In this document: positions 1-49,991 of the stretch, piece by piece | Position numbering within the stretch: the first letter of the stretch is position 1 | How the letters are laid out: each line of letters begins with the position of its first letter | Origin: a virus | Length of the DNA stretch: 64,000 nucleotides | Reading direction: 5' to 3' (one strand) | Virus genome (UHGV): UHGV-0086135 | Made by a program: the position numbers and the translations under genes | The notes under the pieces: generated by a model | Seen by the model: the letters and a program-made list of their open reading frames with translations, nothing else | What the model was told of the DNA's origin: nothing | Database searches by the model: none

Positions 1-65
1 TTAACTCTCTGACTCCGGAACAGCAGCGCGACGTTATCGCTCGTACCTTTACTGAGAGCTTGTAA
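1..65 (+). CDS. C-terminal fragment of upstream CDS (hypothetical, vs-locus)
   Basis: Open frame entering from window edge; stop TAA 63-65 overlaps next start (TAATG). Confidence 0.3.
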   Translation, partial: NSLTPEQQRDVIARTFTESL

Positions 66-286
66 TGGCAAAGATAATTATTGAAGGTTCTAAAGATGTG
101 TTAAATGCTTTCGCCGAGTGGTTTAGTAATTCAGGCGAACAGCAATTTAATGAAGCGTGGAATATGGGTGATATTAGTGGAATTTATCCTACGACAGAAA
201 TTTCTGTTCAAGGATATGGCATTCATGAACCTATTCGTTTAGTTGAATATGATTTATGTACTGGCGAGGAAGTCAAATATGATTGA
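65..286 (+). CDS. hypothetical small protein (vs-locus), 73 aa
   Basis: ORF packed head-to-tail with neighbours upstream of regB. Confidence 0.5.
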   Translation: MAKIIIEGSKDVLNAFAEWFSNSGEQQFNEAWNMGDISGIYPTTEISVQGYGIHEPIRLVEYDLCTGEEVKYD

Positions 287-545
287 AGACATTAAGGGTT
301 ATAAGCCACATACTGAAGAGAAAATCGGTAAAGTGAATGCAATCAAAGATGCTGAAGTTCGTTTAGGACTTATCTTTGACGCTTTATATGATGAATTCTG
401 GGAAGCACTAGATAATTGTGAAGACTGTGAATTCGCGAAGAATTATGCTGAAAGCCTCGATCAGTTAACTATTGCTAAAACGAAACTCAAAGAAGCCAGT
501 ATGTGGGCTTGTCGTGCTGTGTTCCAACCAGAGGAAAAATATTAA
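279..545 (+). CDS. hypothetical small helical protein, 88 aa; occupies the vs.4 position (possible Acb2-like sponge, unverified)
   Basis: ATG 279 with GAGG 9 nt upstream, overlaps stop of previous ORF; second ORF upstream of regB. Confidence 0.45.
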
Positions 546-823
546 TGGCTCAATTAAGCGCAGGGTTTGGTTATGAGTATTATACTGCCCCTCGTCGTGT
601 ATCTGTTGCTCCTAAGAAAATTCAAAGTCTTGATGACTTCCAAGAAGTAGTCCGTAAAGCTTTCCAGGACTATGCACGTTATCTTAAAGAAGATTCACAG
701 GACTGTCTCGAAGAAGATGAAATTGCTTACTATGAGCAGCGTCTTGAGCAGCTTAAAAACCTACATGAGGTCCGTGCAGAAGTTTCAAAGTCTATGAATA
801 AATTGATTAGATTTAAAGAATAA
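545..823 (+). CDS. hypothetical small protein, 92 aa (vs.3 position)
   Basis: ATG overlapping previous stop (TAATG); acidic helical product. Confidence 0.45.
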
Positions 824-825
824 CT

Positions 826-855
826 GTTTACTTTTCCTCTTGACTGTGGTATAAT
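826..855 (+). promoter_or_regulatory. T4-type early promoter (GTTTAC 826-831, TATAAT 850-855)
   Basis: -35/-10 hexamers with 18 bp spacer upstream of regB. Confidence 0.6.
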
Positions 856-882
856 TTTTCTATCAGTTAAGAGGAGAATAAC

Positions 883-1344
883 ATGACTATCAACACAGAA
901 GTTTTTATCCGTCGAAATAAGCTTCGTCGTCACTTTGAGTCGGAGTTTCGTCAAATTAACAATGAGATTCGTGAGGCATCAAAAGCAGCAGGGGTCTCAT
1001 CGTTTCATCTAAAATATTCTCAGCATCTTCTTGATCGTGCAATTCAACGGGAGATTGATGAGACATATGTTTTTGAATTATTCCACAAAATAAAAGACCA
1101 TGTTTTAGAAGTTAATGAATTCCTGAGTATGCCTCCGCGTCCTGACATTGACGAGGATTTTATTGATGGGGTTGAATACCGTCCTGGACGTTTAGAAATC
1201 ACAGATGGAAATCTTTGGCTTGGATTTACAGTTTGTAAACCTAATGCGAAGTTCAAAGACCCGTCGCTTCAATGCAGGATGGCAATTATCAACAGTCGTC
1301 GTTTACCAGGAAAGGCTTCTAAAGCAGTAATTAAAACTCAATGA
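883..1344 (+). CDS. regB: RegB site-specific endoribonuclease
   Basis: 153 aa; sequence MTINTEVFIRRNKLRRHFESEF... matches my recollection of T4 RegB. Confidence 0.9.
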   Translation: MTINTEVFIRRNKLRRHFESEFRQINNEIREASKAAGVSSFHLKYSQHLLDRAIQREIDETYVFELFHKIKDHVLEVNEFLSMPPRPDIDEDFIDGVEYRPGRLEITDGNLWLGFTVCKPNAKFKDPSLQCRMAIINSRRLPGKASKAVIKTQ

Positions 1345-1351
1345 GGTAAGC

Positions 1352-1897
1352 ATGAGAAAAGCACTACTCGCTGGTCTATTGGCCATTTCAATGATGGCGC
1401 ATAGCTCCGAGCATACTTTCAGTAATGTCCAACTCGATAACATGCGTTACGCGTATCAATTCGGGGAACAATTTTCTAAGGATGGAAAATATAAAACACA
1501 CAAAAATATCCACAAGAGCGGATTAGGTCATATAATGGCTGCTATTTTATGGCAAGAAAGCTCTGCCGGAGTTAATTTAAAATCTAAACCAAAGCATCAT
1601 GCCTATGGAATGTTCCAAAATTATTTGCCTACTATGCGAGCAAGAGTTAAGGAACTTGGTTATAATATGACCGATGCTGAAATAAAAAGAATGTTGAATA
1701 AACGGTCCAATTCAGCTTCCTGGGCGTACATTGAACTTTCTTATTGGTTAAATATACATAAGGGCGATATAAGAAAGGCGATATCCTCTTATAATTCGGG
1801 ATGGAATGTTAAAGCAGGTTCTAAATATGCTTCTGAAGTCCTAGAAAAGGCTAATTACCTTAAAAATAATAAACTTTTGGAAATAGTAAATGACTAA
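1352..1897 (+). CDS. secreted protein with lytic-transglycosylase-like motif (vs.1 position)
   Basis: N-terminal signal peptide; ILWQESSAG...YGMFQN resembles SLT ES...GLMQ motif. Confidence 0.55.
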   Translation: MRKALLAGLLAISMMAHSSEHTFSNVQLDNMRYAYQFGEQFSKDGKYKTHKNIHKSGLGHIMAAILWQESSAGVNLKSKPKHHAYGMFQNYLPTMRARVKELGYNMTDAEIKRMLNKRSNSASWAYIELSYWLNIHKGDIRKAISSYNSGWNVKAGSKYASEVLEKANYLKNNKLLEIVND

Positions 1898-2231
1898 AAT
1901 TTTGGTTTTATGTATAGGATTAATTTCATTTTCTGTGTTAGCAGATACATCATATACTGAAATTAGAGAGTATGTAAACCGTACTGCCGCGGATTATTGT
2001 GGGAAAAATAAAGCATGCCAAGCTGAATTTGCGCAGAAATTAATATATGCATATAAAGACGGAGAAAGAGATAAATCAAGCAGATATAAAAATGATACAT
2101 TGTTAAAACGATATGCTAAAAAGTGGAATACCTTAGAATGTTCAGTTGCGGAGGAGAAAGATAAAGCCGCTTGTCATTCAATGGTTGACCGTTTAGTAGA
2201 TTCTTATAATCGAGGATTGAGTACTAGATGA
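1890..2231 (+). CDS. small secreted protein, 113 aa (vs position)
   Basis: Signal peptide MTKILVLCIGLISFSVLA; several Cys. Confidence 0.5.
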   Translation: MTKILVLCIGLISFSVLADTSYTEIREYVNRTAADYCGKNKACQAEFAQKLIYAYKDGERDKSSRYKNDTLLKRYAKKWNTLECSVAEEKDKAACHSMVDRLVDSYNRGLSTR

Positions 2232-2707
2232 TTGTAAAATATATCAAGGGCGATATTGTCGCCCTATTTCTTCAAGGTAATATTATTGCGCACGGGTGCA
2301 ATTGCTTTCACACAATGGGCTCTGGCGTAGCAGGTCAATTAGCAAGAGCCTATCCCAAAATTTTAGAAATAGATAAAACCACTACCGAGTACGGTTCTCG
2401 TGATAAATTAGGTGATATGTCTATTGTTTTTAAACATAGCCCTACGGGATTTGGTATATGCTATAACCTGTATACGCAATACGAACCGGGTCCTAATCTT
2501 GATTATGGTGCTTTAGTAAACTGCATGATAGAATTAAATCTACAGGCAGAAACCCTTTTGTTTAAACCAGTAATTTACATTCCACGTATAGGTTGCGGTA
2601 TTGCTGGCGGCGATTGGGATAAGGTTTCTAAATTAATCGACATGTTTACTCCTGATATTGATTTAATAGTGGTGGATTATGAAAGTACATTACCCGCATC
2701 CGTTTGA
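2228..2707 (+). CDS. macro-domain protein (ADP-ribose binding/hydrolase fold), tk.4 position
   Basis: AHGCNC...MGSGVAGQLA...IGCGIAGG motifs typical of macro domains. Confidence 0.65.
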   Translation: MIVKYIKGDIVALFLQGNIIAHGCNCFHTMGSGVAGQLARAYPKILEIDKTTTEYGSRDKLGDMSIVFKHSPTGFGICYNLYTQYEPGPNLDYGALVNCMIELNLQAETLLFKPVIYIPRIGCGIAGGDWDKVSKLIDMFTPDIDLIVVDYESTLPASV

Positions 2708-2891
2708 TCCTAAAAACAAAGTGGAAATTATTCGTCAATGGGAACGCATTTGCCGTACTAAATGCCCAATTAATAGTCCACATGATGTAGATAAAGACTA
2801 TATTGGAACATTCGTTGAATATACCTTTATTGATAAGAAAGGTCGTAAACAACATGTAGAAGAATATTGTTTAAAGGTTACATGGTTATGA
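2679..2891 (+). CDS. hypothetical protein, 70 aa
   Basis: ORF in tk-upstream small-gene run. Confidence 0.4.
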   Translation: MKVHYPHPFDPKNKVEIIRQWERICRTKCPINSPHDVDKDYIGTFVEYTFIDKKGRKQHVEEYCLKVTWL

Positions 2892-3094
2892 GCCAAACTA
2901 GTATTCTTAAAAATGCCCACTGCGAAAAGTGTGAATGGCCAGTTGTTTTTGCTTTATGTAATGATGAAATGACTTGTGATTTCGATTATTGGTGCTATTG
3001 TTCTAATAAAGGATGCATCAATCATAAAGGTGAAGGATTTTATTCAGGATTTTATCCTTATCCTGATTTCGTTAAAGAAGGTAAACCGAAATGA
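2888..3094 (+). CDS. Cys-rich small protein, 68 aa
   Basis: ATG overlapping previous stop (ATGA); CxxC pairs. Confidence 0.4.
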   Translation: MSQTSILKNAHCEKCEWPVVFALCNDEMTCDFDYWCYCSNKGCINHKGEGFYSGFYPYPDFVKEGKPK

Positions 3095-3264
3095 ATAGTT
3101 CTGAGTTACAATATGAAGTGTTATGTGAGCTTGATAATTTAATTGAACTCGCTGTCAATAAAGGTTTTGCCATTGGAATCGGTCAAAAAGATACTGGTCA
3201 TTTAACTATGGAAATATTTAAGCAAAAGCGAATTATTTTAAAACTCCTGGAAATTAATATATGA
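3091..3264 (+). CDS. hypothetical small protein, 57 aa
   Basis: ATGA-coupled start; not in ORF track (<60 aa). Confidence 0.35.
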   Translation: MNSSELQYEVLCELDNLIELAVNKGFAIGIGQKDTGHLTMEIFKQKRIILKLLEINI

Positions 3265-3446
3265 GTCTGAGTAAAGAACAAAAAGATAAATTGTTTGAGC
3301 TTATCCATGAACTTCTAGATGAGCATACAGAAGCAAACACCTTTTATGATGAATACGGCCCGCTATCTCCCGATCAGCAAGAAGAATTTGCTGATCGGTT
3401 TGATAAGAAAGAAAACGAATTAATAGCTTATGTGAATACGCTTTAA
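3261..3446 (+). CDS. hypothetical protein, 61 aa
   Basis: ATGA-coupled ORF immediately upstream of tk. Confidence 0.4.
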   Translation: MSLSKEQKDKLFELIHELLDEHTEANTFYDEYGPLSPDQQEEFADRFDKKENELIAYVNTL

Positions 3447-3455
3447 GAAGGTGAT

Positions 3456-4037
3456 ATGGCGAGTTTAATTTTTACTTACGCAGCAATGAATGCTGGAAAA
3501 TCTGCTTCTCTTTTGACTGCTGCACATAATTATAAAGAACGCGGAATGGGTGTATTAGTTCTTAAGCCTGCTATTGATACTCGTGATTCTGTCTGTGAAG
3601 TCGTTTCTCGCATTGGAATTAAGCAGGAAGCGAATATTATTACGGATGATATGGATATTTTTGAGTTCTATAAATGGGCTGAAGCACAAAAAGATATTCA
3701 TTGTGTATTTGTAGATGAAGCTCAGTTTTTAAAAACTGAACAGGTGCATCAATTAAGCCGAATTGTTGATACATATAATGTTCCTGTTATGGCTTATGGT
3801 CTAAGGACTGATTTCGCTGGAAAATTATTTGAAGGTTCTAAAGAACTTTTGGCGATCGCAGATAAACTTATTGAACTAAAAGCAGTTTGTCATTGTGGTA
3901 AAAAAGCGATTATGACAGCTCGATTAATGGAAGATGGAACACCAGTTAAAGAAGGTAATCAAATCTGTATTGGTGATGAAATTTATGTTTCTTTGTGTAG
4001 AAAACATTGGAATGAATTAACTAAAAAGCTCGGTTAG
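3456..4037 (+). CDS. tk: thymidine kinase
   Basis: 193 aa; P-loop NAGKSASLL and C-terminal Zn-finger Cys pattern of TK. Confidence 0.95.
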   Translation: MASLIFTYAAMNAGKSASLLTAAHNYKERGMGVLVLKPAIDTRDSVCEVVSRIGIKQEANIITDDMDIFEFYKWAEAQKDIHCVFVDEAQFLKTEQVHQLSRIVDTYNVPVMAYGLRTDFAGKLFEGSKELLAIADKLIELKAVCHCGKKAIMTARLMEDGTPVKEGNQICIGDEIYVSLCRKHWNELTKKLG

Positions 4038-4046
4038 TGCAAAAGT

Positions 4047-4054
4047 TATAAATA
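4047..4054 (+). promoter_or_regulatory. T4 late-promoter motif TATAAATA
   Basis: Exact TATAAATA ~26 nt upstream of ORF 4080. Confidence 0.4.
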
Positions 4055-4079
4055 GGTTTATCTAACTAAAGGGGTATAT

Positions 4080-4292
4080 ATGCTACAATTAACTGAAAAG
4101 CAACTTCGCAATCTTACTGTTCTTCAATTAGATGAAATTCGTAGGGAAGTTGGAAATATCATTTCAGCTTTGCGTCGAGAAGTATCACTCAACCAATCTC
4201 CGGCAGACTATACTAGATTGCGAAATTTTGAAAAATACCTTGATAAAGTTAAGGCCGTGCATCGGCATAAAGTAAATACAGGACAAAAATGA
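4080..4292 (+). CDS. hypothetical protein, 70 aa (rI.-1 position)
   Basis: ORF with SD between tk and rI. Confidence 0.5.
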
Positions 4293-4304
4293 TAGGAGGC
4301 CTTT

Positions 4305-32489: not shown

Positions 32490-33053
32490 ATGAGCTTATT
32501 TGAAGATGATATTCAATTAAACGAGCATCAAGTTGCTTGGTATTCAAAAGATTGGACAGCTGTCCAATCTGCTGCTGATTCTTTTAAGGAAAAAGCTGAA
32601 AATGAATTTTTTGAAATAATTGGAGCTATTAATAATAAAACTAAATGCTCTATTGCTCAAAAAGATTATTCAAAATACATGGTCGAGAATGCATTATCAC
32701 AATTTCCTGAATGCATGCCAGCTGTATATGCGATGAATTTAATTGGATCAGGTTTAAGCGATGAAGCCCATTTTAATTATCTGATGGCTGCCGTTCCTCG
32801 GGGTAAAAGATACGGTAAATGGGCAAAACTGGTCGAAGATTCTACCGAAGTATTGATTATTAAGTTACTTGCTAAGCGGTATCAAGTTAATACAAATGAT
32901 GCAATTAACTATAAATCAATTCTTACTAAAAATGGAAAACTTCCTTTAGTATTAAAAGAACTAAAAGGTTTAGTCACGGATGATTTTTTGAAAGAAGTGA
33001 CTAAGAACGTAAAAGAACAGAAACAACTCAAAAAACTAGCATTGGAATGGTAA
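32490..33053 (+). CDS. 62: clamp loader small subunit gp62
   Basis: 187 aa at conserved position. Confidence 0.9.
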
Positions 33054-46323: not shown

Positions 46324-46560
46324 ATGGGTGGTTTCGTTAACATCAAGACCTTTACTCATCCAGCGGGTGAAGGCAAAGAAGTTAAAGGTATGGAAGTTTC
46401 TGTTCCGTTTGAAATTTATTCTAACGAGCATCGTATCGCAGATTCTCATTATCAGATCTTTCCTTCTGAAGAGGCAGCATATTCTACCGTAGTTTCTAAT
46501 GCAGCTGATTGGAAAACTAAGAATGCTGCAATGTTTACGCCTACACAAATAGGTGGTTAA
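46324..46560 (+). CDS. soc: small outer capsid protein Soc
   Basis: 78 aa; VNIKTF...HYQIFPSEEAAYSTV resembles T4 Soc. Confidence 0.8.
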   Translation: MGGFVNIKTFTHPAGEGKEVKGMEVSVPFEIYSNEHRIADSHYQIFPSEEAAYSTVVSNAADWKTKNAAMFTPTQIGG

Positions 46561-47210: not shown

Positions 47211-47696
47211 ATGGAAGCGATTTTGTTTGAAATGTATATTAGCAGTAATAGTTTGTCGTTTGCTAAAGACGTTCCAATTACCGTAGCAGTAATGATTGAT
47301 AAGGGTTATTGTGACCCAATGTATCTCGTAGAAAATTTCGTTTCAATGCCAGTTCCAGAAGATGCTGAAATAAAACTTAAAAAGATTGGTATTATTGAAA
47401 CTGTACCAAATATTCCGTTTAGAGCAATTGAAGCATTTACTAAATCAGAATACATTAATGTTAGCGCAGAACAATATAATGATAAACCTTTATCTTTTTA
47501 TTCGTATGATTCAGTATATAGTTGGAAAATAGATAAAGGAAATAAATTTATAATTGCGAGTGAAGATGCTTTATCATACTTCATTTATTATGTATGGAAT
47601 AATTTAAATCCAAAATTGCTAAAAATTCATGAATTTGACGATGCTCCTACTATTGTTTTAGGTAAAACAAGTGAAAGTTCTGAAGAAGATGCTTGA
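47211..47696 (+). CDS. hypothetical protein, 161 aa
   Basis: ATG 47211 with GAGGAAA SD (track starts at TTG 47199). Confidence 0.5.
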
Positions 47697-48768: not shown

Positions 48769-49392
48769 ATGATTATTAATCTCGCAGATGTTGAACAGTT
48801 ATCTATAAAAGCTGAAAGTGTCGATTTTCAATATGATATGTATAAAAAGGTCTGTGAAAAATTTACTGACTTTGAACAGTCAGTTCTTTGGCAATGTATG
48901 GAAGCCAAAAAGAATGAAGCTCTTCATCGGCAGTTGAATAAAATCGTTAAAAAGCATTTAACTAAATCGCCTTATCAGCTATATCGTGGTATATCAAAAT
49001 CGACAAAAGAACTCATTAAAGATTTGCAAGTTGGAGAAGTGTTTTCAACGAACAGAGTAGATTCATTTACTACTAGTTTGCACACAGCATGTGGTTTTTC
49101 TTATGTTGAATATTCCACTGAAATAATATTTCGCTTAAAAACTGATAAAGCTTTTAATTATTCTGACCATATCAGTGATATTATACTTTCTTCTCCTAAT
49201 ACTGAATTTAAGTATACATATGAAGATACTGATGGATTAGATTCAGAACGTACTGATAACTTAATGATGATTGTGCGTGAACAAGAATGGATGATTCCAA
49301 TTGGAAAGTATAAAATAACTTCTATTTCAAAAGAAAAATTACACGATTCATTTGGAACATTTAAAGTGTATGATATTGAGGTAGTTGAATGA
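48769..49392 (+). CDS. modB: ADP-ribosyltransferase ModB
   Basis: 207 aa from ATG 48769 (GGAGG SD); R-S-E motif (YRGI / STNRVDSFTTS / EQEWMIP). Confidence 0.75.
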   Translation: MIINLADVEQLSIKAESVDFQYDMYKKVCEKFTDFEQSVLWQCMEAKKNEALHRQLNKIVKKHLTKSPYQLYRGISKSTKELIKDLQVGEVFSTNRVDSFTTSLHTACGFSYVEYSTEIIFRLKTDKAFNYSDHISDIILSSPNTEFKYTYEDTDGLDSERTDNLMMIVREQEWMIPIGKYKITSISKEKLHDSFGTFKVYDIEVVE

Positions 49393-49991
49393 AATATTCA
49401 GCAATGCAATTAAAAGATTTTAAAATCAAATCAATGGATGCATCTGTGCGTGCTTCTATTCGTGAAGAATTACTTTCTGAAGGATTTAATTTATCCGAAA
49501 TTGAACTTTTAATTCATTGTATTACTAATAAGCCAGACGATCATTCTTGGTTAAATGAAATAATCAAATCTCGTTTGGTTCCAAACGATAAACCTCTTTG
49601 GAGAGGTGTTCCAGTTGAGACTAAACAGGTGTTAAATCAAGGAATTGATATTATTACATTTGATAAAGTAGTATCAGCTTCATATGATAAAAATATAGCT
49701 CTACATTTTGCTTCTGGATTAGAATACAACACGCAAGTTATTTTTGAATTCAAAGCTCCTATGGTGTTTAATTTCCAGGAGTATGCTATAAAAGCTTTAC
49801 GTTGTAAAGAATATAGCCCGAGTTTTAAATTTCCGGATAGCCATCGTTATCGTAATATGGAATTAGTTTCAGATGAACAAGAAGTAATGATACCAGCTGG
49901 AAGTGTATTTAGAATTGCGGATAGATACGAGTATAAAAAGTATTCAACATACACTATCTATACTCTTGATTTTGAAGGATTTAATCTATAA
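49389..49991 (+). CDS. modA: ADP-ribosyltransferase ModA
   Basis: 200 aa; R-S-E motif (WRGV / SASYD / EQEVMIP); paralogue of ModB. Confidence 0.75.
   Translation: MKYSAMQLKDFKIKSMDASVRASIREELLSEGFNLSEIELLIHCITNKPDDHSWLNEIIKSRLVPNDKPLWRGVPVETKQVLNQGIDIITFDKVVSASYDKNIALHFASGLEYNTQVIFEFKAPMVFNFQEYAIKALRCKEYSPSFKFPDSHRYRNMELVSDEQEVMIPAGSVFRIADRYEYKKYSTYTIYTLDFEGFNL

Follow-up and report, generated by a model that had tools for sequence, protein, structure and literature searches.

DarTG systems block phages through ADP-ribosylation of phage DNA, and host range is decided by the phage enzymes that erase this mark. Phage T4 without adfA and adfN stayed fully resistant to DarTG2 (PMC11825919). In a November 2025 preprint, not peer-reviewed, a T4 transposon library was screened on DarTG2-expressing E. 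coli (HIDEN-SEQ, bioRxiv 10.1101/2025.11.20.689424); tk.4 was the sole significant hit under DarTG2, and its clean knockout sensitised T4, a result that fills the gap left by the resistance that did not depend on adfA and adfN. The preprint describes Tk.4 as structurally similar to M. tuberculosis DarG, renames the gene adfM (anti-DarT factor Macrodomain), and grades enzymatic removal of ADP-ribose from DNA by T4 Tk.4 as ‘seems likely’. [quoted passage not shown]

The ALC1-like class of macro domains includes Streptomyces coelicolor SCO6735, Bacteroides BT1257, human TARG1 and DarG (PMC9411070); yeast Poa1p and ALC1 are also counted in it. On thymidine-linked ADPr-DNA, SCO6735 has a higher rate of cleavage than either DarG or TARG1, and it gives protection from DarT (PMC9411070); its activity has been confirmed on synthetic substrates (PMC12879935). 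Its Q85A and Q85E mutants are dead and N27S is nearly dead, and the effect of a G128E mutation has also been reported; the mechanism proposed is lysine-independent and water-mediated, with the catalytic water positioned by the Val25 backbone and Gln85, and a mobile loop is thought to serve DNA binding (PMC9411070). TARG1 is also active on thymidine-ADPr DNA (PMC9411070, PMC12879935).

The window analysed here is a stretch of 64,000 nucleotides of virus genome UHGV-0086135, whose first 25 kb match T4-like phages, EPIMAM01 among them, at 96-98% identity. The gene under study is an open reading frame on the plus strand that runs from ATG to TGA and encodes 159 aa plus stop, as given in the ORF list and read directly from the sequence (Table 1). 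The gene has a name already, tk.4, and the phage is T4-like (Tequatrovirus). Megablast with this ORF hit 559 phage records, almost all of them Tequatrovirus or relatives; there, vs and tk.3 lie on either side of the gene, and its labels are ‘tk.4’, ‘phosphatase’ or ‘macro domain protein’. Phage vB_SsoM_113 has the same gene annotated tk.4, and phages PBM-1 and SHFML-11 encode identical (100%) products. Against T4 Tk.4 (NP_049723), the product aligns without gaps over 155 aa at 58% identity (E 1e-70), and both its position between vs and tk.3 and its full-length homology place it in the T4 Tk.4/AdfM orthologous group. The first-pass annotation left the gene unnamed, though the T4 RefSeq entry already carries ‘Tk.4; contains A1pp phosphatase motif’. 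For T4, the gene, its domain and its likely role are on record, and no new kind of system is added here; the residual interest of tk.4 lies in a branch in which lysine is replaced by an invariant glutamine and in an apparent cassette allele replacement.

Deposited annotations differ in where the gene begins: the Shigella phage SHFML-26 record (protein cluster P0002) has tk.4 starting from Met30, giving 130 aa. A Met30 start, present in some deposited annotations, removes the invariant HGCNC strand from the protein; the start that gives 159 aa is supported because residues 1-29 are conserved across homologues.

The local order, regB - vs.1 - vs - tk.4 - tk.3 - ... - tk - rI.1 - rI, is that of T4, and the first-pass placement of the gene beside small vs/tk genes is correct: tk.4 lies between vs and tk.3, upstream of tk. 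The start codon of tk.4 and the stop codon of vs share bases in an ATGA at 2228-2231, which hints that the two genes are translationally coupled, and the start of tk.3 overlaps the 3′ end of tk.4 by 29 nt. Judging from this arrangement, tk.4 is probably co-transcribed with the genes from regB through vs.1, vs and tk.3 to tk, and coupled to vs; we take its expression to be early, as in T4. A scan of positions 1-4300 for sigma-70 promoters and terminators found 15 sites, compared with 16.6 +/- 4.1 in shuffled sequence; there being no excess, we claim no promoter. The best-scoring sigma-70 site, at 827-855 upstream of regB, is a lead only.

Two further features were observed in this part of the window. 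An 8-bp G+C-rich hairpin, AGGGCGATATTGTCGCCCT, at 2247-2265 on the plus strand begins 20 nt into the tk.4 coding sequence, covers the conserved KGDIVAL codons, and was flagged on both strands by the terminator scan; it could be due to chance, or it could have an effect on translation. In addition, the product of vs.1, labelled hypothetical in T4, begins with a hydrophobic stretch that resembles a signal peptide (MRKALLAGLLAISMMAHS), and it matches an SLT lytic transglycosylase domain weakly but above threshold (23.4 bits vs 21.3).

Table 1. Features of the tk.4 locus and of the ADP-ribosyltransferase genes in the window (positions in nucleotides of the window; identities are to T4).
Feature	Position	Strand	Remarks
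regB			protein identity 99%
vs.1	1352-1897	+	protein identity 99%
vs (valyl-tRNA synthetase modifier)	1890-2231	+	upstream neighbour of tk.4; 96.5% identical
GAGGA, likely Shine-Dalgarno	2212-2216	+	11 nt upstream of tk.4 ATG; read from sequence
tk.4 (adfM-type) CDS	2228-2707	+	stand-alone macro domain; ORF list, Pfam Macro above cut-off; protein identity 58%
Block of low DNA identity to T4	2270-2740		0.38-0.8 vs 0.92-1.0 either side
AHGCNC, residues 21-26	2288-2305	+	
H22-G23-C24-N25-C26	2291-2305	+	H22, G23, N25 in 119/119 non-gap sequences
MGSGVAGQLA, M30-A39	2315-2344	+	first glycine-rich loop and next helix
N80-L81-Y82-T83-Q84	2465-2479	+	N80, Y82, Q84 in 121/121
P119-R-I-G122-C-G124-I-A-G-G128-D-W130	2582-2617	+	second glycine-rich (phosphate-binding) loop
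IGCGIAGG, residues 121-128	2588-2611	+	
tk.3 (DUF7202)	2679-2891	+	downstream neighbour of tk.4; 93% identical
tk	3456-4037		downstream of tk.4; protein identity 99%
modB (48769-49389), modA (49389-49988)	48769-49988	+	ADP-ribosyltransferases; tblastn of T4 ModA 97.5%, ModB 95.7% identity

When the window was aligned to T4 with MAFFT, identity computed in a sliding frame revealed how sharply tk.4 departs from its surroundings. DNA identity drops from about 0.98 to about 0.4 at roughly 2270-2740 and then recovers, and these limits make the divergent block nearly coextensive with tk.4; the products of regB, vs.1 and tk remain almost the same as in T4 (Table 1). From the sequence comparison (58% protein identity for tk.4, 93-99% for its neighbours), this looks like a cassette-like allele replacement in a near-identical backbone. 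By tblastn, the window-type allele (at least 90% identity) is present in 313 phage records, and the T4-type allele (56-58% identical to the window type) is carried by many Escherichia T4-like phages. The nearest other type of tk.4 is that of JS10 (75% identity), a phage which presumably belongs to another genus of T4-like phages. Tk.4 homologues as a whole were found by tblastn in 2860 of 50,697 phage records and in many unrelated groups, with FelixO1-like, rV5-like, Vibrio, Campylobacter, Streptomyces and Bacillus phages among them. The family also has bacterial members; one of these, Pelagimonas P0094, is a stand-alone gene with no DarT-like neighbour, a single case that says little on origin.

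Divergence from T4 was also seen elsewhere in the window. A second divergent block at 2890-3450 corresponds to the tk.1/tk.2 region, in a backbone that is otherwise 93-100% identical to T4; here, tk.2 is 54% identical to its T4 counterpart and two ORFs (2867-3094 and 3091-3264) stand in place of T4 tk.1. The first of these, on the plus strand, encodes a cysteine-rich product of 75 aa that matches Pfam PF23895 ‘Phage zinc binding domain’ (E 3.4e-29) and phrog_2306, and tblastn found no counterpart of it in the compared T4 tk region (T4 56.5-63.0 kb). Likewise, soc and mrh (46330-46545 and 47211-47693, plus strand) are 44.6% identical to T4 over 74 residues and 77.6% identical, respectively, and the nearby modA, modB, srd and dda are 96-98% identical.

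Profile searches, the predicted fold and matches to solved structures all place Tk.4, at 159 aa, among the stand-alone macro domains of the ALC1-like class. Pfam Macro (PF01661) matches with 32 bits (gathering score 22; E 1.3e-7) over residues 22-136, covering profile positions 2-117 of 118, and PHROG 335 matches at E 1.2e-71. There are 794 homologues at E<=1e-3; the best 120 homologue clusters are all 95-199 aa long, hence stand-alone. A phmmer search against PDB sequences retrieved BT1257 (2AFC/2FG1) at E about 4e-10, and also Poa1p, SCO6735 (5E3B), Mtb DarG (5M3I) and TARG1. AlphaFold2 run from the single Tk.4 sequence gave an unusable model (pLDDT 34.3), which we replaced with a run on an 83-homologue alignment; the resulting model (pLDDT 94.5, pTM 0.89) has alternating strands and helices in the three-layer alpha/beta/alpha arrangement of macro domains. 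Foldseek of this model against the PDB returned TARG1, BT1257, Poa1p, DarG and SCO6735, each with probability 1.0 and TM about 0.7-0.75, and TARG1 was the top match (E 5.5e-10, TM about 0.72-0.82). In both structure and sequence, then, the nearest neighbours belong to the ALC1-like class and not to the MacroD, PARG or macroH2A types. The first-pass annotation had called a macro domain and proposed structure prediction as a check; these three kinds of evidence uphold the call, and the predicted structure has the macro fold.

Some database labels point to a different kind of macro domain. JGI labels some homologues ‘O-acetyl-ADP-ribose deacetylase (regulator of RNase III)’, and Tk.4 has a weak match to NCBIfam NF001661; on this reading, Tk.4 would regulate RNase III and deacetylate O-acetyl-ADP-ribose as MacroD/YmdB-type proteins do. 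This match scores 15.7 bits against a cut-off of 291; on that curated cut-off we rejected MacroD/YmdB deacetylase membership, and we consider such a function extremely improbable.

To describe conservation, we used the window Tk.4 and the best 120 clusters, 121 sequences in all. The motifs AHGCNC, MGSGVAGQLA and IGCGIAGG, which the first-pass annotation had quoted as macro-domain hallmarks, are all present in the 159-aa product and sit on the invariant family columns H22, G23, N25, C26, G33, A35, G122 and G124. Taken with the PF01661 and PHROG 335 matches and the 794 homologues, this makes the motif set more than chance. G33 and A35 are invariant in 121/121 sequences, and residues 33-41 form a helix in the model; G122 and G124 are present in 119/119. 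Binding of ADP-ribose by Tk.4 is predicted from the conserved glycine-rich loops and Asn25.

At the position that holds the catalytic lysine in several relatives, the active site parts from what the plain label ‘DarG homologue’ would imply. We aligned the window Tk.4, T4 Tk.4, three family members, BT1257, SCO6735, ALC1, TARG1, two DarGs and PhiKZ gp104, and a single column block contains NLYTQ (Tk.4), NMIGQ (BT1257 and SCO6735), IVAQ (ALC1), LITK (TARG1), NFPTK (DarG) and MFPTK (PhiKZ). Q84 of Tk.4 occupies the catalytic-lysine position (TARG1 K84, DarG K80, PhiKZ AdfM K78), which is also the position of the essential Gln85 of SCO6735. A profile alignment to TARG1 sets the family NlYtQ opposite YLITK, so that Q84 again falls on K84, and places A126 at the position of TARG1 D125. 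When the C-terminal 104 residues of Tk.4 were searched against the PDB with phmmer, alignments reached only the last glycine loop; the DarG catalytic position was mapped via PhiKZ gp104, the family profile and the BT1257 bridge to SCO6735. In the PDB chains of T. aquaticus DarG, after a check of the numbering offset, N22 lies in TVNTVG and K80 in NFPTK, and in PhiKZ gp104 the equivalent residues lie in TVN23V and FPTK78. With BT1257 as the bridge, V25, N27, Q85, G126 and G128 of SCO6735 correspond to G23, N25, Q84, G122 and G124 of Tk.4, all five of them invariant; N25 also aligns with DarG N22 and PhiKZ AdfM N23, and H22 with Poa1p H23. As judged by these alignments, T-even Tk.4 is Gln-type like SCO6735, not Lys-type like DarG and PhiKZ AdfM. 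ALC1, a non-catalytic poly-ADP-ribose binder, also has a Gln here, and so the Gln alone is no proof of a hydrolase.

We consider it likely, from the combined analysis, that the window Tk.4 is an AdfM-type enzyme that removes DarT2-made ADP-ribose from thymidine using a SCO6735-like, lysine-independent site. Specifically, Tk.4 would bind the ADP-ribose that the host toxin DarT2 places on thymidines of single-stranded phage DNA, and would then hydrolyse the base-ribose bond and free the ADP-ribose; phage replication could then proceed in DarTG2 hosts, with Tk.4 standing in for the DarG antitoxin as its orphan functional counterpart. The putative active site would pair the invariant Q84 with the adjacent invariant Asn25, as in SCO6735, and would require no lysine. 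The DarTG2 genetics cover the T4 allele, and because the T4 protein is only 58% identical and has a different second glycine loop, assigning this function to the window allele is a transfer. We infer that the window allele shares the anti-DarTG2 role and that its activity is DNA de-ADP-ribosylation and not binding alone. Counting against our preferred explanation, Tk.4 has no lysine-bearing mobile loop, it is acidic (calculated pI 5.0), and it shares its Gln with ALC1.

The first-pass annotation had offered two roles, reversal of a host ADP-ribosylating defence and regulation of the phage’s own ADP-ribosylation. The former is backed by the screen and knockout of the T4 ortholog (bioRxiv 10.1101/2025.11.20.689424). 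We found no description of a need for tk.4 on plain E. coli K-12; the T4 hit is specific to DarTG2. The scope of the activity may also be limited: CmdTAC, a system that ADP-ribosylates mRNA, still strongly restricts T4, which carries Tk.4, and this argues against Tk.4 as a general eraser of nucleic-acid ADP-ribosylation.

Hydrolysis is not the only way in which a macro domain might counter DarT2. Tk.4 could protect mainly without catalysis, either as a binder of ADP-ribosylated DNA or as a direct inhibitor that binds DarT2 itself. The dead mutants SCO6735 Q85A, DarG K80A and TARG1 K84A keep the ability to inhibit DarT in vitro, SCO6735 most strongly (PMC9411070), which makes a mainly non-catalytic, DarT-binding mode possible for Tk.4, and ALC1 has the same Gln and is a pure binder. 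However, Tk.4 has no counterpart of the C-terminal DarT-binding domain of DarG, and ALC1 lacks the Asn that Tk.4 keeps. The Tk.4 family never departs from the Asn, Gln and GxG that SCO6735 needs for catalysis, and such invariance argues for hydrolysis; moreover, a stoichiometric binder would presumably have to keep pace with the many modified sites of replicating DNA. We therefore regard a mainly non-catalytic mode as unlikely, and hydrolysis of the DarT2-made mark as the preferred reading.

The other role offered by the first-pass annotation, regulation of the phage’s own ADP-ribosylation, did not find support; in a wider form of it, Tk.4 would reverse or tune what Alt, ModA and ModB do to proteins by ADP-ribosylation or RNAylation. 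Searching with the T4 proteins by tblastn confirmed that modA and modB are encoded in the same window (Table 1), and both tk.4 and modA/modB lie in regions that we take to be pre-replicative in T4; co-occurrence in the genome is nonetheless the sole link to regulation of ModA/ModB. Arginine-linked ADP-ribose is normally removed by ARH/DraG-type enzymes, not by macro domains. Alt, ModA and ModB modify arginines, such as Arg265 of RNA polymerase alpha (PMC8120803), whereas the characterised relatives of Tk.4 act on Glu/Asp-linked, nucleic-acid (thymidine)-linked or free ADP-ribose derivatives (PMC9411070, PMC12879935). The distribution of the family, taken as a count of Tk.4 homologues alone, reaches many unrelated groups among the 2860 records, and the T4 hit was specific to DarTG2 (bioRxiv 10.1101/2025.11.20.689424); both count against a role in the phage’s own ADP-ribosylation, which we consider very unlikely.

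The ‘A1pp phosphatase’ label carried by RefSeq and PHROG 335 raises the further idea that Tk.4 is a Poa1p-like ADP-ribose-1''-phosphate phosphatase whose substrate would be a small-molecule by-product, arising from RNA repair or from NAD metabolism. Poa1p H23 and S30, positions that we took from the mutant structures 6lfs (H23A) and 6lft (S30A), align with Tk.4 H22 and T29, the Ser to Thr change being conservative, so at the level of residues the likeness holds. However, the legacy label is a domain name carried over and not a measured activity, and a phosphatase would leave the DarTG2-specific phenotype of the T4 knockout unexplained. Macro domains are often weak Appr1p phosphatases in vitro without that being their role, and we know of no source of ADP-ribose-1''-phosphate in T4 infection. 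We judge this function to be quite unlikely.

With removal of DarT2-made ADP-ribose as the preferred reading, the window protein can be compared with the described systems. The closest is T4 Tk.4 (AdfM), which has the same position between vs and tk.3, belongs to the same length class (155 vs 159 aa), aligns end to end without gaps, and shares all family-invariant residues, including H22, N25, Q84, G122 and G124. The two differ in that the window protein has four extra C-terminal residues, with a reading frame that runs 29 nt into tk.3, and keeps GCGIAGGDW in the second glycine loop, where GAGIGKGNW of T4 departs from the family consensus. Judged by motifs alone, the window allele seems no less fit for catalysis than the T4 allele that was tested. 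Thus tk.4 exists as at least two strongly diverged, cassette-swapped alleles, one of which has been tested, and this matters for predicting which T4-like therapeutic phages are DarTG2-resistant.

SCO6735 (PDB 5E3B) and BT1257 (2FG1/2AFC), the Gln-type members of the ALC1-like class, are about 26-28% identical to Tk.4 and have the same Gln and supporting Asn (Q85 and N27 vs Q84 and N25). Their PRIGCGLAGG is nearly identical to PRIGCGIAGG of Tk.4, which includes the equivalents of Gly126 and Gly128. In contrast, Tk.4 lacks their ‘mobile loop’, which is longer by 5-6 residues and bears Lys89 and Lys94: BT1257 carries six inserted residues when aligned to the Tk.4 family profile, and the Tk.4 loop, QYEPGPNLDY, has no lysine. 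SCO6735 and BT1257 are also bacterial chromosomal genes and not phage counter-defence genes. TARG1/OARD1 (PDB 4J5R/4J5S) is similar in size and about 20% identical, but its catalytic K84/D125 dyad is Q84/A126 in Tk.4.

DarG, the antitoxin of DarTG2 (T. aquaticus 5M31/5M3E, M. tuberculosis 5M3I), shares the active-site Asn (N22 in T. aquaticus, N25 in Tk.4), but its catalytic Lys80 (NFPTK) is replaced by Gln84 (NLYTQ). Against the DarG equivalog NF048014, Tk.4 scores 27.7 bits where the cut-off is 250. DarG2 has a two-domain organisation (PMC11825919), and Tk.4 matches only positions 2-142 of 338 in NCBIfam NF048014 and 3-144 of 329 in PADLOC PDLC02990, so that the DarT-interacting C-terminal domain is absent; no darT adjoins tk.4, whose neighbours are vs and tk.3. 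The score, the missing domain, the Lys to Gln change and the gene neighbourhood together rule out that Tk.4 is a full DarG.

PhiKZ gp104, the chimallivirus AdfM, is also a stand-alone phage macrodomain that counters DarTG2 and bears the same name (PMC13309987). Its ORF (32518-33006 of the PhiKZ sequence used here) was compared with that of the window. Unlike Tk.4, PhiKZ AdfM is a close relative of DarG (E 9e-25 to Mtb DarG) and keeps Lys78, and it is about 20% identical to the window Tk.4. The T-even and PhiKZ proteins are different branches of the ALC1-like class, and their recruitment was probably independent. A broader proposal, which we regard as possible but doubtful, is that T-even Tk.4/AdfM is an independently recruited, SCO6735-like Gln84 hydrolase that was not derived from DarG, and that its allele swaps reflect an arms race; if so, the two Tequatrovirus alleles would differ in the DarT2 variants or other nucleic-acid ADP-ribosyltransferases that they neutralise. 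The Gln at the catalytic-lysine position puts T-even AdfM mechanistically with SCO6735, and the one name AdfM hides two branches.
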